In this document: in pieces, positions 9,526 to 56,393 of the stretch
Layout: each line of letters opens with the position of its first letter
Position numbering within the stretch: position 1 is the first letter of the stretch
NCBI GenBank assembly: GCA_963727895.1
Contig: CAVSHT010000003.1
Coordinates: 256,001 to 320,000, forward strand
Reading direction: 5' to 3'
Length of the DNA stretch: 64,000 bases
Source of the DNA: an uncultured Methanosarcinaceae archaeon
GTDB taxonomy: Archaea; Halobacteriota; Methanosarcinia; Methanosarcinales; Methanosarcinaceae
Translations under genes and position numbers: made by a program
The notes under the pieces: generated by a model
Databases searched by the model: none
What the model saw: only the letters and a program-made list of their open reading frames with translations
What the model was told of the DNA's origin: nothing

Positions 9526-10265
9526 GGCATTGGTACACAAAAATAGATATATGTGCTTATAACATATATTTCTTCATGAACTGCCCAAAATGTAATAGTT
9601 CCAGTCACAAAAAGAACGGTATAGTTGGCGGGCGTCAACGGTACAAATGCTCTGATTGTGGATATAACTATACAGTAGAGCTAAAATCAACTGCTTTTTC
9701 CGCTTCTGTAAAAAGACAAGCTTTACAACTCTATCTTGAAGGATTAGGCTTTCGTTCAATAGGAAGAGTTTTAGGGGTAAGTCATGTTTCTGTCCAAAAA
9801 TGGATAAAGAAATTTGGTCAGGAGTTAGAGGCCCTAAAAAGTGAAAATGAGATATCTATTGTTGAAATGGATGAGCTGCACACTTACATCGGTAACAAAA
9901 AAAATATTGCTGGATCTGGATTGCTGTTGATAGAGTTGGGAAAAAGTTCATCAACTGCTCTTTTGGTAGCAGAGGAACGGAAACTGGAAAACTACTCTGG
10001 GAAAAAATGAATAAAGAATACATTGGAGAAATGATGACAGATCACTGGAGAGCATATGCAGAGTTTCTTCCAGAAAAGAATCATACTCAATCAAAAGCAG
10101 AAACATTTACAGTTGAGGGATATAACAGCATATTGAGGCATTTTCTAGCAAGATTAAGAAGAAAGACAAAGTGTTATACGAAGAGTCTTGAAATGCTAAA
10201 GTACTCGGTTATTCTATTGATGAAATACAGAAATAAAGAGTTAACTATATTTAGATACTAATACC
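9526..10265 (+). mobile_element. IS1 family element, copy 1 (older, degenerate)
   Basis: InsA zinc ribbon CPKC...CSDC plus HTH, InsB DDE part (EMDELH, MTDHW, VEGYNS); TIRs GGCATTGGTAC.../...ATACTAATACC; extra frameshift near 10007; no clean TSD. Confidence 0.9.
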
Positions 10266-18220: not shown

Positions 18221-19239
18221 TTATTTAAAACGGTTGTATTTCTTATGCGCCTGTTCAGCCGTTATTATATTAAAAACAAGGGCATTGATACTTAAACATA
18301 GTTATATACTATTAGAAAGTATATTTCTTCATGAACTGCCCCAGATGCAATAGTTCCAGTCACAAAAAGAACGGTATAGTTGGTGGTCGTCAACGGTACA
18401 AATGCCATGATTGTGGATATAACTATACAGTAGAGCTAAAATCAACTGCTTTTTTCGCCTCTGTTAAAAAACAGGCTTTACAACTTTACCTTGAAGGATT
18501 GGGCTTTCGTTCAATAGGACGATTTTTAGGGGTGAGTCATGTTTCTGTCCAAAGATGGATCAAGAAATTTGGTCCGGAGTTAGAGGACCTAAAAAGTGAA
18601 AATGAGATATCTATTGTTGAAATGGATGAAATGCACACTTACATCGGTAACAAAAAAATATTGCTGGATCTGGATTGCTGTTGATAGAGTTGGGAAAAAG
18701 TTCATCAACTGCTCTTTTGGCAGCAGAGGAACGGAAACTGGAAAACTACTCTGGGAAAAATTGAAGAAAAAAGACATTGGAGAAGTGATGACAGATCACT
18801 GGAGAGCATATGCAGAGTTTCTTCCTGAAACGATTCATACTCAATCAAAAGCAGAAACGTATACTGTTGAAGGAGATATAACAGCATATTGAGGCATTTT
18901 TTAGCAAGGTTGAGAAGAAAGACAAAGTGTTATACAAAAAGTCTTGAAATGCTAAAGTACTCGGTTATTCTATTGATGAAATACAGAAATAAAGAACTAG
19001 ATATAGTTAAGTAACAATGCCAAAACAAGAGCTTCACTTCTTTCAAAATCAATTTCATATAAAATACGAAAATCGCCTACCTGAAGCCGATAAACTGTCT
19101 TATGACTTCCTTTTACCTCTTTTTTGTTTCCCCCTGGCAAGGGATCTTTTAGTTCACGAAGAGCCTCTTTTATTTGATCCCTTCGATTTACAGGAACATT
19201 TTCGAAGACCTTAGGGTGAATCAGAACTTTAAAGGTCAT
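18221..19239 (-). pseudogene. RelE/ParE-family toxin interrupted by IS1
   Basis: YRLQVGDFRILYEID motif; removing the IS and one TSD restores ...EALV-FNIITAEQAHKKYNRFK* with stop at 18221. Confidence 0.85.
18281..19021 (+). mobile_element. IS1 family element, copy 2
   Basis: TIRs GGCATTGATACTTAA / TTAAGTAACAATGCC; perfect 8-bp TSD AAAACAAG (18273-18280, 19022-19029); insA/insB ORFs. Confidence 0.95.
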
Positions 19240-19423
19240 CGATGCTCACGAACTCGTCACGATGTTCTTTTATGAGCTTATCACCTTAGTCTATAAGTTT
19301 ATTGCAGTTGTGTTCATGGATCAATTTTCGTATAACGGTATTATAGTCATCACCCATTTTCCCAATGTTTTTTAACTCCTCGCGAGTGTCTTTAGATATC
19401 TGTATAGTTGTAGTTTCTGACAT
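19229..19423 (-). pseudogene. Antitoxin (RHH-like) pseudogene upstream of the toxin
   Basis: MSETTTIQISKDTREELKNIGKMGDDYNTVIRKLI, then a +1 frameshift and in-frame TAA, then GDKLIKEHRDEFVSIDDL* overlapping the toxin ATG. Confidence 0.7.
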
Positions 19424-20010
19424 AATAGTCACTATAACTATTATGGTATTTATAACATATGATGTACAGTGAAATAAATTATTAAGGTAGTCATGCAGAT
19501 GTAATTATTGAAAGAACGCGCCATGAAGACTATCCATCTGAACTCAAAAACCCCATTCTGCTAGTATATAGGAATATTCAAGTCAATTTCGATTTTTAAA
19601 AACAGACTGTATGAAAAATTTTGAAATCTGAAATTTTACTGCGAAAAGTGAGTTTTATTTTCAGGTTCACTGTTTAACTTTTAGAATATGTCGTTTTTAC
19701 ATTTCATTTTAAAAATGTCTCAAAGCGGCTTAGAATGATATATTTTTTTTACTGTTAATGGCAACACAAAAACGCAATGAGAAAGGAATCCAGAAAAACT
19801 CAAAAATGCAGTAATTTTCCTGTAAAAATACTACATTTCATAAACGTAGTTTTTCTCAAAAACTCTACATTTTGTCCTTGGATTAACCAAATTTCACTCA
19901 AATTCCCCTTAATACTCCTAGGGAATACATAGTTTTACAACAAAACTTGTACATCGAATAAACTGCAAAAATAAACAGATTTAGCATGAAAGTACATGAG
20001 GAGATTATCC

Positions 20011-21271
20011 TCACGTGCTCTCTTGATCCTTTTTCCCCATAATCGCAAATATTTCACTAATTATTTTAATCCGTTCATCAACCGAAAAAATCTCAGTCTC
20101 AATAATCTTTCTCTTTTGGATTTCTCTTTTGATATCCGGTTTCATCTTCGTCCATCTCATCGTTTGTAATAAGATGCCATAGTATCGTTGCAATTTTCCT
20201 TGCTAAGGCAATAATTGCTTTTGCATGTCCAATCGACTTCTTTTTTCTGTTAAAAAACTCTTTTAACCTGCTATTCTTCTTTCTTGCTGCTGCTTGAGCA
20301 ATCTGTGTCAGAATCCACCTTGCTACTTTTGATCCCCTCTTTGTGATTCTGCCGTTATAGTATTTATCTGCAGATTGATACACATTAGGAACTAGACCAA
20401 GCCAAGAAGCAAGCTTATTTCCAGAAGAAAAATCCTTAAAGTTGCCTATTTCAGCAAGTAAAATTGCCGCACCAAGTTCCCCTATACCTGGAACTGACAT
20501 TAAAATCTCCATTTCTCGCTTATGATTTCGAGAAGCATAATTAAAAATTTCTTTTTCTAAAGCTTCGAGTTCATCATCAAGACTTTTTATGAGTTTCAGA
20601 CAGATCTGAAGTCTGAATGCAGCACTTTGAGAAATTTCTCGATCAAGAATTTCTCTTATCTGAGCAGCTTTTTTCCGAACATTTGGAGAGAGGCTTGCAA
20701 TAATCTGATCAACACTCTTACCTGAAGAGATTCCTAATAAGATCATTCTGCCATTCTTGCCAAAAACGTCTGTCAGCACATTATTCAGGTGTAGCATTTC
20801 AGATGCAAGAATTGAATTTCAGATGCAAGAATTGAGTGAACTTTATTTTTTAAATCTGTTCTTTTTTGTACAAGTGTTAACCGAAGTCGAACATATGATC
20901 TAAAATCTATATGATCCTTTGGAAAAACTCTTGATGGCTGAATCATATTATTAAGTGCAAGTTGTGCAATGACTTCTGAGTCAATCTTATCTGTTTTTTA
21001 TGGGTAAATACCTTCATATCTCGCGCATTTCCAACTATCACAGTTAGATGCTTTACCAATGAATCATGAATCGGAACCCAAAAGTAGCTGGTTGATTCAC
21101 ATGCAACAACATCACATTTTTCTGATATTACCCAATTTTTAAGGGCTAAAATTCCTTCATCATCTCTGTTGAAGCGTTGCTGTTGTTTTTCACCAGATAT
21201 ACTGAGAATTGTAGCAATGAAAAAGAGTTTGTGAATGTCTAAACCACAAGCTTTGTTATGACTTCAATCAA
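20011..21271 (-). pseudogene. IS110 family transposase (DEDD RuvC + Tnp20 domains), multiply frameshifted
   Basis: CGLDIHK, ACEST, TDKIDSE, SVPGIGELGA, GLVPNVYQSA, ARKIATILW; GGTGAT RBS before TTG 21271; 20-bp tandem duplication 20796-20835. Confidence 0.9.
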
Positions 21272-21290
21272 ATTAGATCACCAAATTTAT

Positions 21291-21424
21291 TTGGGCAGTG
21301 GAATTGCCTAAAAGGCCAATTTAGCATCCGTGATCAAAGTCACACTTGAGCCTTCGATGGCAATTCACTGATTAGTTTTAGGACGGTTTTGAAAAACCAA
21401 AATCGAGACAACCTTACTGCCCAA
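21291..21424 (-). ncRNA. Candidate IS110 bridge/seek RNA
   Basis: Nested stems with internal loops; loop sequence ATTTAGCAT (21319-21327) is identical to the junction at 19979-19987; strand inferred from G-U pairs and transposase orientation. Confidence 0.6.
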
Positions 21425-21559
21425 GGTAATGAGGACTTAATAGTCAAAAAAAAGAACGGAGAGTACTGTCATTAGTTGTGCTTGTTATTCGAAGAAAAGC
21501 ATGTGCGTTGTAGGGGTGAGTCATGTGCAGTAGATATTAATAATATTTTCATATAATGT

Positions 21560-22394
21560 CTAGTTAGACAGCTCAGAATGAAACACTTCTTTATTCAGTC
21601 CATATGTTTTTACTAGAAATTTTACTTTCTCTAAGAACTCATTGGGTGACGTGGGAGATATGTATATTTTTTCAACTAATGTGTCTAATGAAATATTAAC
21701 GTACATTCCTTTACGTTCTACATTTTCGTCATCGTCTTCTTCTTTTTCTGTATCCTCAAATGCAACTATGGCTCTGATCTCTTTTTCTTCTACGAAATCT
21801 TTTTATCTTTTGTATAAGAAAGGGCAATAATCATTTCCAAGAACTATTTTTAATTCTTCGTTAATAGGTTATTTTTCCGAGAAATACTGTAGGCTTATTA
21901 TTACTAAAACAGTCTTGTAATCTTTTAAAATTTGATTGAATTGCAATGCCTGTCTCTTTTTCAGTGTACTTATCCCACATATATTTTGACTCGCATTCAT
22001 TCATATGAAAGCATTTTATAACAATTTCGTTCCTTGAACGATTTTTTCGCATATTGAGTATAATTTGTATCACTGGCACTTCTATATCTTTACCACTGTA
22101 GTTATCTATCAGATCTTTAAAAAGTTAAATGGTATCAATGTCTGTATCTGTATTGTAAAGTTCAGTTAACAATATTTGTATATTTTCGTCTTTGCATCTA
22201 TCCCGAAGCTCATGAATTGTGTTAAAGTCGGCATCAGTGGGACAACCTTCCCTAGGATCATCAAAAGAATTAGGACTTGAATAAAATAGCTTTTTAGTTT
22301 CTAACAATTCAACAAAATGTTTATATTTCATATAATGCCATATTTTTACCGAATCATTATCAGGCAGTTTGAAATATTTGTGCTCTTGATACAT
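21560..22394 (-). pseudogene. DUF2971-like protein, disrupted
   Basis: IWHYMKYKHFVELLETKKLFYSSPNSFDDPREG, MWDKY..GIAIQS, YKR..FVEEKEIRA, IYISP fragments separated by stops and frameshifts. Confidence 0.65.
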
Positions 22395-22446
22395 AATGTG
22401 AAATCCTTTTATATTTGATTAATTTTGATGAAAAAAATTAGTTAAT

Positions 22447-22576
22447 GAGTTATCTCGAAACTCAAAGGTTGATTTTTGAATCTCGTATTTGGAGCAGTCA
22501 ATCGAATATATGATCAGGGGGAATGACTCTGAAAACTCCTGATGATTTAGAATAAAACAGGTTTTGGGATAGGCTC
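22447..22576. mobile_element. ~130-bp MITE-like element, copy B
   Basis: GAGTTATCTCGAAACTC...GTTTTGGGATAGGCTC; diverged inverted copy of 8261-8392. Confidence 0.7.
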
Positions 22577-55638: not shown

Positions 55639-56393
55639 GGCATTGTTACTCAAATATATCTAGTTCTTTATTTCTGTATTTCATCAATGGAATAACCGAG
55701 TACTTTAGCATTTCAAGACTCTTCGTATAACACTTTGTCTTTCTTCTCAACCTTGCCAAAAAGTGCCTCAATATGCTGTTATATCCCTCAACTGTAAATG
55801 TTTCTGCTTTTGATTGAGTATGAATCGTTTCTGGAAGAAACTCTGCATATGCCCTCCAGTAATCGGTCATCACTTCTCCAATCTCTTTTTTCTTCAATTT
55901 TTCCCAGAATAGTTTTCCAGTTTCCGTTCCTCTGCTACCAAAAGAGCAGTTGATGAACTTTTTCCCAACTCTATCAACAGCAATCCAGATCCAGCAATAT
56001 TTTTTTGTTACCTATGTAAGTGTGCATTTCATCTATTTCAACAATAGATATCTCATTTTCACTTTTTAGGTCCTCTAACTCCTGACCAAATTTCTTTATC
56101 CATCTTTGGACAGAAACATGACTCACCCCTAAAACTCTTCCTATTGAACGAAAGCCCAATCCTTCAAGGTAAAGTTGTAAAGCCTGTTTTTTAACAGAGG
56201 CGGAAAAAGCAGTTGATTTTAACTCTACTGTATAGTTATATCCACAATCATGGCATTTGTAGCGTTGACGCCCACCAACTATACCGTTCTTTTTGTGACT
56301 GGAACTATTGCATCTGGGGCAGTTCATGAAGAAATATACTTTCTAAGAAATATACTTTCTAATAGTATATAACTATGTTTAAGTATCAATGCC
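55639..56393 (-). mobile_element. IS1 family element, copy 3
   Basis: TIRs GGCATTGTTACTCAAA / TTTAAGTATCAATGCC; perfect 8-bp TSD TAATAAAT (55631-55638, 56394-56401); insA/insB ORFs. Confidence 0.95.

Follow-up and report, generated by a model that had tools for sequence, protein, structure and literature searches.

Locus and insertion sequence

We analyzed a 64,000-nucleotide (nt) stretch of contig CAVSHT010000003.1 from an uncultured Methanosarcinaceae archaeon (the window; all coordinates are positions in it). It carries a non-autonomous copy of an IS110-family insertion sequence at 19980..21507 on the minus strand, as delimited by copy comparison and empty sites. The broken transposase gene of this copy (20099..21265, minus strand) shows DEDD_Tnp_IS110 and Transposase_20 domains in several reading frames of the open reading frame list. 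Between the left end of the element and the transposase start codon lies a structured region with a core of about 134 nt (21291..21424, minus strand), which probably encodes a functional bridge RNA (seek RNA) of the element; we put the probability of this reading, with the loop assignments given below, at about 0.83. A sequence-only reading of the same DNA had proposed a guide RNA of this type upstream of the transposase of an archaeal IS110-family element, with its flagged internal loop binding the target. This proposal is partly supported: the domains of an intact copy, the conserved stems, and the co-variation of the loops bear it out in kind, but the loop assignment was wrong.

Two frame breaks disrupt the transposase gene of the window copy: 20 nt are duplicated in tandem at 20796-20835, and 1 nt has been lost near the start. 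The genome (19 contigs) has about 25 copies of the element, about 22 of them near full length with 92 to 99% identity, plus fragments. The 20-nt duplication is present in 20 copies and absent from 5; therefore, a defective derivative has amplified in this genome. The sole copy with an intact transposase (P0001, on contig C4) encodes a protein of 390 amino acids (aa) with a TTG start, which presumably serves the defective copies in trans. This protein matches PF01548 (2.5e-17) and PF02371 (3.6e-26) and scores 261 bits against the NCBIfam model NF033542, “IS110 family RNA-guided transposase,” for which the cut-off is 140. The solved IS621 and ISCro4 transposases match it in the C-terminal domain only (E = 3.7e-9 for IS621).

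In transposase sense, and with ^ marking the exchange point, the element and its surroundings follow the junction model (left target)...AAAA^CGCACATG...CATGCTAAA^(right target), and similarity among the copies stops at those points. The left end, ^CGCACATG (21500..21507, minus strand), is common to the copies and forms the right donor arm. The right end, CATGCTAAA^ (19980..19988, minus strand), forms the left donor arm and is invariant in the copies of the genome, with flanks that differ directly after it. All copies start with ...CTAAAACGCACATG, where the window copy has CTACAACG, and end with ...CTCATGTACTTTCATGCTAAA; the sequence common to the near-full copies runs from ...CTAAAACGCACATG to ...TTTCATGCTAAA, and beyond both ends the flanks diverge. 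The A-run at 21508-21511 is common to target and donor, and the left boundary is thus uncertain by up to 4 nt. The target-derived ...CTAAAA that precedes the left end reads CTACAA in the window copy. CATG is kept at both ends of the element, 5 to 6 nt from the exchange point.

A 10-bp inverted repeat (ATGAAAGTAC and GTACTTTCAT) is found near both ends. Its right copy (19986..19995, ATGAAAGTAC on the plus strand) is 6 to 8 nt inside the right end, and its left internal copy (21463..21472), located by comparison of copies and relatives, is about 36 to 45 nt inside the left end. The two copies pair at 9 of 10 positions in the window element and at 10 of 10 in the family consensus. Methanospirillum keeps the repeat in other letters (CATGAAAAAC and GTTTTTCATG), and in relatives with 36 to 45% protein identity it likewise differs in sequence. 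A form with joined ends would place the repeat on both sides of the junction.

Structure of the RNA

Relatives of the element were collected with a protein search of 201 genomes of the same order, which gave matches in 55, and a scan of one genome per species, which gave 54 further loci. They were found in Methanosarcina, Methanospirillum purgamenti (54% identity), a Methanoculleus bin, and Methanoperedens. A 17-nt anchor from the 3' arm of the RNA is present in 64 of the 114 loci, and it is in these 64 loci that the RNA core is conserved. Structure counts come from an alignment of 25 distinct RNA regions, on which a six-helix structure was scored.

The core runs from the 5' strand of a closing stem (P1, 21416-21424) to its 3' strand (21291-21299). 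TTGGGCAGT at 21291-21299 pairs with ACTGCCCAA at 21416-21424, and a repeat finder returns the same pair, 9 nt long and 100% complementary. The closing stem encloses two arms, each with an internal loop. The first, the putative target-binding arm (21370..21413, minus strand), has a basal stem GGUUG/UAAUC (21409-21413 and 21370-21374) and an apical hairpin GGTTTTGAAAAACC at 21385-21398; both helices are predicted by RNAalifold, and the basal stem shows a G:U to G:C change (15 G:C and 9 G:U). The second, the putative donor-binding arm (21301..21366, minus strand), is supported by pairing and RNAalifold. It has a long stem, GAAUUGCC with GGCAAUUC (21359-21366 and 21301-21308; GAATTGCC at 21301-21308 and GGCAATTC at 21359-21366 on the plus strand of the DNA), and an inner stem AAGGC/GCCUU (21350-21354 and 21312-21316; on the plus strand, AAGGC at 21312-21316 with GCCTT at 21350-21354). 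Its apical hairpin, GTGATCAAAGTCAC, is at 21330-21343, and here a U:A pair becomes C:G in two sequences. All stems and hairpins of the sequence-only reading (the outer stem, the long stem, the inner AAGGC/GCCTT, the apical hairpin, and the GGTTTT/AAACC hairpin) lie where it had placed them.

The stems are kept in the 25 distinct relatives, a check that the same reading had proposed. Paired cells make up 92.5% of 850 (34 pairs in 25 sequences), compared with 26 to 52% when the partners are slid by 1 to 3 columns; six rows have the closing stem out of register by one column, and its count is lower for that reason. Both sides change in 5 of the 34 pairs, for example, in the closing stem from GGGCAG/CUGCCC to GGACAG/CUGUCC. 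Strong conservation of the stems keeps this co-variation modest, and the columns that vary belong to the loop strands. With the alignment as its sole input, RNAalifold returns five of the six helices.

In one locus (L044), about 110 nt are inserted into the apical hairpin of the target arm, and both guide strands are kept. Upstream of the closing stem, in transposase sense, there are an AT-rich box (21436-21443) and a run of eight T's (21446-21453). The AT-rich box was considered as an archaeal TATA promoter, and its spacing to the closing stem does not fit a simple model; no promoter was assigned.

Probable target-binding loop

The arm with the GGTTTT/AAACC hairpin has two loop strands, each of which matches a different strand of the target, one to the left and one to the right of the exchange point. 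The 5' strand, CUCGAUUUU (21399..21407, minus strand), is the putative right-target guide and equals the reverse complement of the target top strand AAAATCG(AG); it varies with the right flank. The 3' strand, CCUAAAAC (21375..21382, minus strand), is the putative left-target guide and equals the target top strand CCTAAAA plus C; it varies with the left flank. The latter strand, located 3' of the small hairpin, follows the pattern GU-NNNN-AAAC, whose four variable bases are the four bases of the left flank.

We compared the guides with the flanks in 19 to 20 lineages by shuffling guides among lineages (20,000 permutations); the lineages are related, so the resulting figures overstate independence. 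The left-target guide matches its left flank at a mean of 3.25 of 4 positions, compared with 1.57 (standard deviation [SD], 0.22) under the null, and 0 of 20,000 permutations were as high (20 lineages, 45 junctions). The right-target guide matches its right flank at a mean of 6.69 of 9 positions, compared with 5.72 (SD, 0.19), again with 0 of 20,000 permutations (19 lineages, 51 junctions); this test is conservative because the A-run matches every guide.

Single lineages illustrate the matches. On the left side, CAGAAAAC goes with the flank CAG^AAAAC (...CAG^AAAACGCACATG), UUAAAAAAC goes with TTAAAAAAC in four of five Methanospirillum copies, and GAAAAAAC, CAAAAAAC, and (G)AUAAAAC each match their own flanks. 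On the right side, ACUUAUUUU matches CTAAAATAAGT at 9 of 9 positions, CUUUUCUUU goes with CCAAAGAAAA, and CUCGAUUUU of the window goes with AAAATCG; in Methanosarcina spelaei, which has CCUUAUUUU, 10 of 14 distinct right flanks begin with TAAG. This layout, in which the left guide occupies the 3' side, recurs in distant relatives with 36 to 45% protein identity and other cores: the left flank is matched in full (9 of 9 positions) by CAAACAAAC in one locus (L049) and by CACAGAGUC in four others (L055, L057, L058, and L060). Both strands of the 5' arm loop thus track the flanks, and therefore this arm is most probably the target-binding loop, which would pick the insertion site.

Target site and its use

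About half of the IS110 copies sit in one host repeat, and the preferred target in it is the helix-turn-helix-coding part of an IS1-family element (protein ...GRFLGVSHVS...). The IS1-family element has about 225 copies in the genome, with 209 empty sites and 13 to 16 occupied ones. The 209 uninterrupted copies read GACTYACCCCT-AAAA(A)-[CT/AT]-C[TG]TCC.... From the comparison of empty and filled sites, the left target is ...CCCCTAAAA^ and the right target ^TCGTCC, ^ATCGTCC, ^CTCTTCC, or ^ATCTTCC. The one junction model fits every junction in the host repeat, 16 of 16 on the right and 13 of 13 on the left. A short A-run is common to the target (...CTAAAA^) and the donor (...CTAAA^); the comparison of empty and filled sites therefore places the exchange, in all likelihood, at the end of this shared run, within which positions are indistinguishable.

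Sites differ in use. With T after the A-run, which is what the right-target guide predicts, 13 of 77 sites carry the element; with C there, only 3 of 148 do (Fisher p = 9e-5).

In the window, an IS1-family element lies at 18331-18892 (plus strand), with a frame for a zinc ribbon and HTH_23 followed by a DDE_Tnp_IS1 frame. Empty target sites are located at 9762-9778 (minus strand), 18517-18533 (minus strand), and 56125-56141 (plus strand), one of them only 1.4 kb from the IS110 copy. The left flank of the window copy is a 14-nt remnant of the IS1-family target (21514..21527, minus strand; ACATGACTCACCCC in transposase sense), identical to the host repeat up to that point only, and its right flank (19900-19979) is unrelated. 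One-sided flanks of this kind suggest either rearrangements between copies or insertions at partial matches. Part of the right flank, 19900-19970, has beside or within it a short repeat of about 45 nt (...TTTATTCGATGYACARGTTTTRTTGTAAAA...) that occurs at three unrelated places, the other two being one locus of the relatives (L028) and the left flank of the IS110 copy at C11:229049; it adjoins an IS110 copy in two of the three places, at differing distances. Farther to the left, adjacent frames of 48 and 80 aa at 18997-19432 (minus strand) look like what we take to be an antitoxin-toxin pair of the RelE/ParE kind.

Probable donor-binding loop

The strand flagged in the sequence-only reading lies in the other arm. 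Its 3' loop strand, AUGCUAAA (21320..21327, minus strand), is the putative left-donor guide and equals the final 8 nt of the element at its right end. The 8-mer equals the right end in 16 of 18 lineages (null mean, 7.4; 0 of 20,000 permutations as high); of the two exceptions, one has U opposite G, which can wobble, and the other shows a register shift of one base. The guide has three states (ATGCTAAA, ATGCCAAA, and ATGGAAAA): AUGCUAAA goes with the right end CATGCTAAA, AUGCCAAA with CATGCCAAA (five lineages), and AUGGAAAA with CATGGAAAA (Methanospirillum plus one further contig). Since this strand equals the right end and changes with it, the flagged 3' arm is probably the donor-binding loop, which would read the element's own end. 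The right end of another locus (L071) has two right-end-like sequences 22 nt apart, CATGTCAAA and then CATGCTAAA, and its donor-loop strand matches the outer one only.

For the right donor arm, the candidate guide is the 5' loop strand UCAAGU with the start of the apical stem, GUG (21341..21349, minus strand). Read from the sequence, CAAGUGUG can pair with the left end CGCACATG through six Watson-Crick pairs and one G:U pair of eight. No co-variation of this strand with the left-end variants CGCAC, CACAC, CGCAT, CGTAC, CGGAC, and CGAAC was found in about 20 lineages, and in Methanospirillum and the distant relatives it has no consistent complementarity and fits poorly. CATG and the 10-bp inverted repeat may be what allows the right donor arm to be recognized. 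Two “handshake” matches were also considered and rejected, one between the final C of the left-target guide and the base that opens the left end, the other between the U that follows AUGCUAAA and the base that opens the right flank; that C and that U are each invariant while the flanks vary.

Another explanation would keep the target loop as a true guide and take AUGCUAAA as a DNA direct repeat of the right end, a recombinase site, with the donor recognized by protein and the inverted repeat. In its favor are the small number of co-varying states, the failure to find a right-donor guide by comparison with left-end variants, and the conserved inverted repeat near both ends, with its different sequence in Methanospirillum. 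The AUGCUAAA 8-mer, however, belongs to the 3' strand of its internal loop, where it takes the position that the left-target guide has in the other arm, and it lies between conserved stems, an arrangement known for donor loops (PMC11208160). We regard this explanation as unlikely.

Leader, strand, and alternative explanations

The putative bridge RNA directly precedes the transposase reading frame, as indicated by the ribosome-binding-like motif GGUGAUC (21276..21282, minus strand; read from the sequence, with the start codon taken from the intact copy), which stands a few nucleotides before the TTG start. We take this motif to resemble the complement of the 3' end of archaeal 16S rRNA. The bases 5' of the closing stem (21425-21436) can pair with the ribosome-binding-like region (21276-21285). 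In four related lineages, this helix is strong (-13.7 to -16.3 kcal/mol; 0 to 6 of 200 shuffles reach such a value), and its sequence changes across them (CUCCAUCAUU and AAUGAUGGAG). These features would suit a structured 5' leader that only controls translation of the transposase, for example, by hiding the ribosome-binding motif, with the guide matches being incidental. ISPpu9, of the same clade, has a translation-blocking leader (PMC12288879, cited from excerpts here and below). Nevertheless, a leader alone leaves unexplained why both strands of the 5' loop track the flanks in 19 to 20 lineages; the helix is weak and not significant in the window's own lineage, where 55 of 200 shuffles are as good, and the roles of leader and guide are compatible. 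We therefore consider a leader without a guide function very unlikely.

The orientation of the RNA can be judged from G:U pairs. Counted over 36 pairs, cells on the transposase-sense strand are Watson-Crick in 733 cases, G:U in 103, and other in 64; on the opposite strand, the counts are 733, 24, and 143. From this surplus of G:U, the RNA appears to be read on the minus strand, in transposase sense. An RNA of the plus strand, antisense to the transposase leader and acting as an antisense regulator, is highly improbable. The plus strand of 21262-21513 does fold slightly better (-61 kcal/mol, z = -2.0, versus -53 kcal/mol, z = -1.1), a comparison that is uninformative alone, and ISPpu9 has an antisense RNA at that place (excerpts of PMC12288879), but the conserved G:U pairs would turn into A-C mismatches on the plus strand, and an antisense RNA could coexist with a bridge RNA.

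The least probable explanation, in which the flagged loop binds ATTTAGC-AT-GTGCG as its target and the element has its ends near 19988 and 21500, starts from a real 9-nt identity and a real 5/7 match and is refuted by the comparison of copies: both sequences lie inside the part common to all copies, the flanks do not diverge until past 19979 and about 21511, the empty sites have CCCCTAAAA(A)TCGTCC or CCCCTAAAACTCTTCC and in no case the proposed target (ATTTAGCATGTGCG), and it is the other arm that tracks the flanks.

The sequence-only reading had arrived at this target from two matches, both of which we recovered. ATTTAGCAT occurs at 21319-21327 and at 19979-19987 and nowhere else in the window, and CACACTT (21341-21347) agrees at 5 of 7 positions with the reverse complement of ATGTGCG (21501-21507), a weak match. 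Besides ATTTAGCAT, the 1.6-kb element region contains five exact direct repeats of 9 nt and two of greater length. ATTTAGCAT consists of one flank base and the element's own right end in reverse complement: at 19979-19987, only the first A (19979) is flank, and the remainder is element and belongs to its invariant end, an outcome that the sequence-only reading had itself named as refuting its target. Since ATGTGCG too is common to the near-full copies, the ends had been set about 8 nt too far in on each side, and the target ATTTAGC-AT-GTGCG does not exist. Its flagged loop changes with the right end in other lineages and is hence not the target-binding loop. The co-variation of loop and flank that it had called for is seen in the two strands of the other arm, while the flagged loop follows the right end. 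The second loop, which it had failed to match to the donor, is in the arm that we assign to the target.

Several observations weigh against a functional bridge RNA with our loop assignments. The 9-nt identity taken by itself is at chance level (1.52 copies expected in 64 kb; 44 of 100 shuffles give at least 2); what marks the features as real is the comparison with relatives. The three donor states follow three clades, which amounts to about two independent changes, and a DNA-level repeat bound by a protein would co-vary with the right end alike; the lack of co-variation of the candidate right-donor strand and the relatedness of the lineages, both described above, add to this. The occupied target sites are maybe not all independent insertions: IS1 sequence flanks about 10 of the 22 copies on both sides and 9 on a single side, and 3 copies lack it altogether. 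An Rfam scan of 19000-22500 of the window with E values up to 10 gave only chance-level matches to unrelated families. The joined-ends junction was not found in the genome or the 114 loci. Among RNA sequencing libraries, 24 runs from 8 studies contain 9 to 10% of the element's sampled words. Four runs yield contigs of a relative (about 93%) that lack the 20-nt duplication and have one extra T after 21255, all covering 20546-21432, and one run yields separate short contigs over 21277-21403 and 21388-21432; such contigs indicate presence only and carry no ends, strand, or level.

Proposed mechanism

We propose that the RNA would be made, trimmed, and bound by the recombinase. By analogy with IS621 and ISEc21, the complex would bring the joined ends CATGCTAAA^CGCACATG to a target such as CCCCTAAAA^TCGTCC, and strands would be exchanged within the shared A-run, at a point that the model places only approximately. 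The donor would presumably be a circular form with the expected junction ...TTTCATGCTAAA^CGCACATGC..., and a matching target of the form CCCCTAAAATCGTCC would be expected to accept the insertion. The window copy, with its RNA gene intact and its transposase broken, would depend on the one intact transposase elsewhere, like 20 of the 25 copies.

If it works in this way, the element offers an RNA-guided recombinase native to genetically tractable methanogens and a possible insertion tool for Methanosarcina. The at least 19 naturally different guide pairs in close relatives would be a ready series for deriving targeting rules.

Comparison with known systems

We added the two domains of the transposase to a 1,054-sequence domain alignment (Supplementary Table 1 of Durrant et al.) and built a tree with FastTree, midpoint rooted; its deep branches are uncertain, and the group membership of the names was taken from the texts of two papers and partly from recall. 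The transposase is sister to the representative ISMac14;ISMba20;ISMba7;ISMma5 (support, 0.984), the nearest labeled recombinase, which is archaeal and, with 51% identity over the two aligned domains, a different element. The ISfinder names ISMac14, ISMba20, ISMba7, and ISMma5 presumably point to Methanosarcina hosts. The transposase falls in a 105-tip clade with ISPpu9 (support, 0.977). It is outside the tight 18-tip clade of IS1111 references and inside a 513-tip clade with them (support, 0.976). This larger clade holds the IS1111 references IS1111A, ISKpn4, IS4321, ISEc11, ISPa11, ISAzs32, and ISCARN28 and excludes ISPpu10, IS621, and IS492; IS110, ISEc21, IS117, and IS900 are across the root.

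Bridge RNAs are well established as a kind, and the RNA described here is a variant in layout. Durrant et al. predicted a bridge RNA in 85.7% of the IS110-group elements of ISfinder (PMC11208160). The excerpts available from two preprints add that 662 archaeal recombinases have been cataloged with their RNAs not analyzed (bioRxiv 10.1101/2024.06.21.599552) and that 86 covariance models, drawn from bacterial and archaeal intergenic sequences, cover 32,190 bridge RNAs, many of them unlike IS621 in shape (bioRxiv 10.64898/2026.10.21.760802). The shape of our RNA may already be within the sets of that survey. Our literature search turned up no account of a bridge RNA from Methanosarcina, nor of any left-end RNA with such a guide order, figures and preprint supplements being outside the search.

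With the bridge RNA of IS621 from Escherichia coli (PMC11208160; structures 8wt6 and others), the archaeal RNA shares its position: both are encoded in the left non-coding end, upstream of a DEDD/Transposase_20 recombinase and with the same sense. It also shares the two internal loops, target first and donor second, each reading one strand per side of a short core. The core, however, is CT there and an A-run here. The strand identical to the left side is here on the 3' side of the loop and the strand complementary to the right side on the 5' side, so the guide layout of IS621 and ISEc21 (the IS110 group) is not the one found: the sides are exchanged in the target loop and in the assignable donor strand. 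The sequence-only reading had noticed this reversal relative to IS621, and it holds for both. The donor loop looks one-sided as well, with an evident RNA guide for one donor arm only, the candidate right-donor strand here having not followed the left-end variants. A further difference is the closing stem that encloses both arms here; we know of no such stem around both arms of the RNA from IS621.

The excerpts of PMC11187229 allow a similar comparison with ISEc21, whose guide order is the same as that of IS621, and with IS1111-type seekRNAs, whose order is the opposite. ISEc21 likewise has its non-coding region upstream and short RNA matches to both target strands. It targets the DDE codons of IS3-family transposase genes, and the target here, too, is a conserved coding stretch of another insertion sequence. 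Its top-strand match, however, is 3' of the bottom-strand match, and here it is 5'. In this order the archaeal element agrees with the IS1111-type seekRNAs of ISEc11, ISPa11, and ISKpn4, and it shares with the IS1111 type an inverted repeat of about 10 bp near the ends. According to the same excerpts, IS1111-type RNA genes lie downstream of the transposase, with a few exceptions in the position of the non-coding region, whereas here the RNA gene is upstream, in a left non-coding end of about 240 nt, and the right end has about 120 nt. The transposase is also longer (390 aa versus 330 to 350 aa for IS1111 transposases), and the left copy of the inverted repeat is about 36 to 45 nt inside the end, compared with subterminal repeats of 7 to 17 bp there.

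ISPpu9 of Pseudomonas putida is close in another respect: in the excerpts of PMC12288879, its bridge RNA is part of the 5' leader of the transposase mRNA, where structure blocks translation, and its target is a repeated host sequence. It differs in being bacterial, in its AG core, and in the additional RNAs Asr9 and Ssr9.

These comparisons fit a guide order that follows the lineage of the recombinase and not the position of the RNA gene. As a tentative and rather doubtful extension, the RNA might represent a distinct and widespread class of bridge RNAs of methanogenic archaea, with a left-end gene, an IS1111-like mirror order of the guides, a closing-stem clamp, and only three of the four DNA arms specified by RNA. 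Its hosts would be Methanosarcina, Methanospirillum, Methanoculleus, and relatives down to 36% protein identity, and the right donor arm would be recognized through the conserved CATG and the 10-bp inverted repeat. If this were true, guide order would go with recombinase lineage, and a shift of the exchange point on the circular form would be all that moved the RNA gene from one end to the other. In either case, compared with the characterized examples, in which the position of the RNA gene and the order of the guides are coupled, this element separates the two features.

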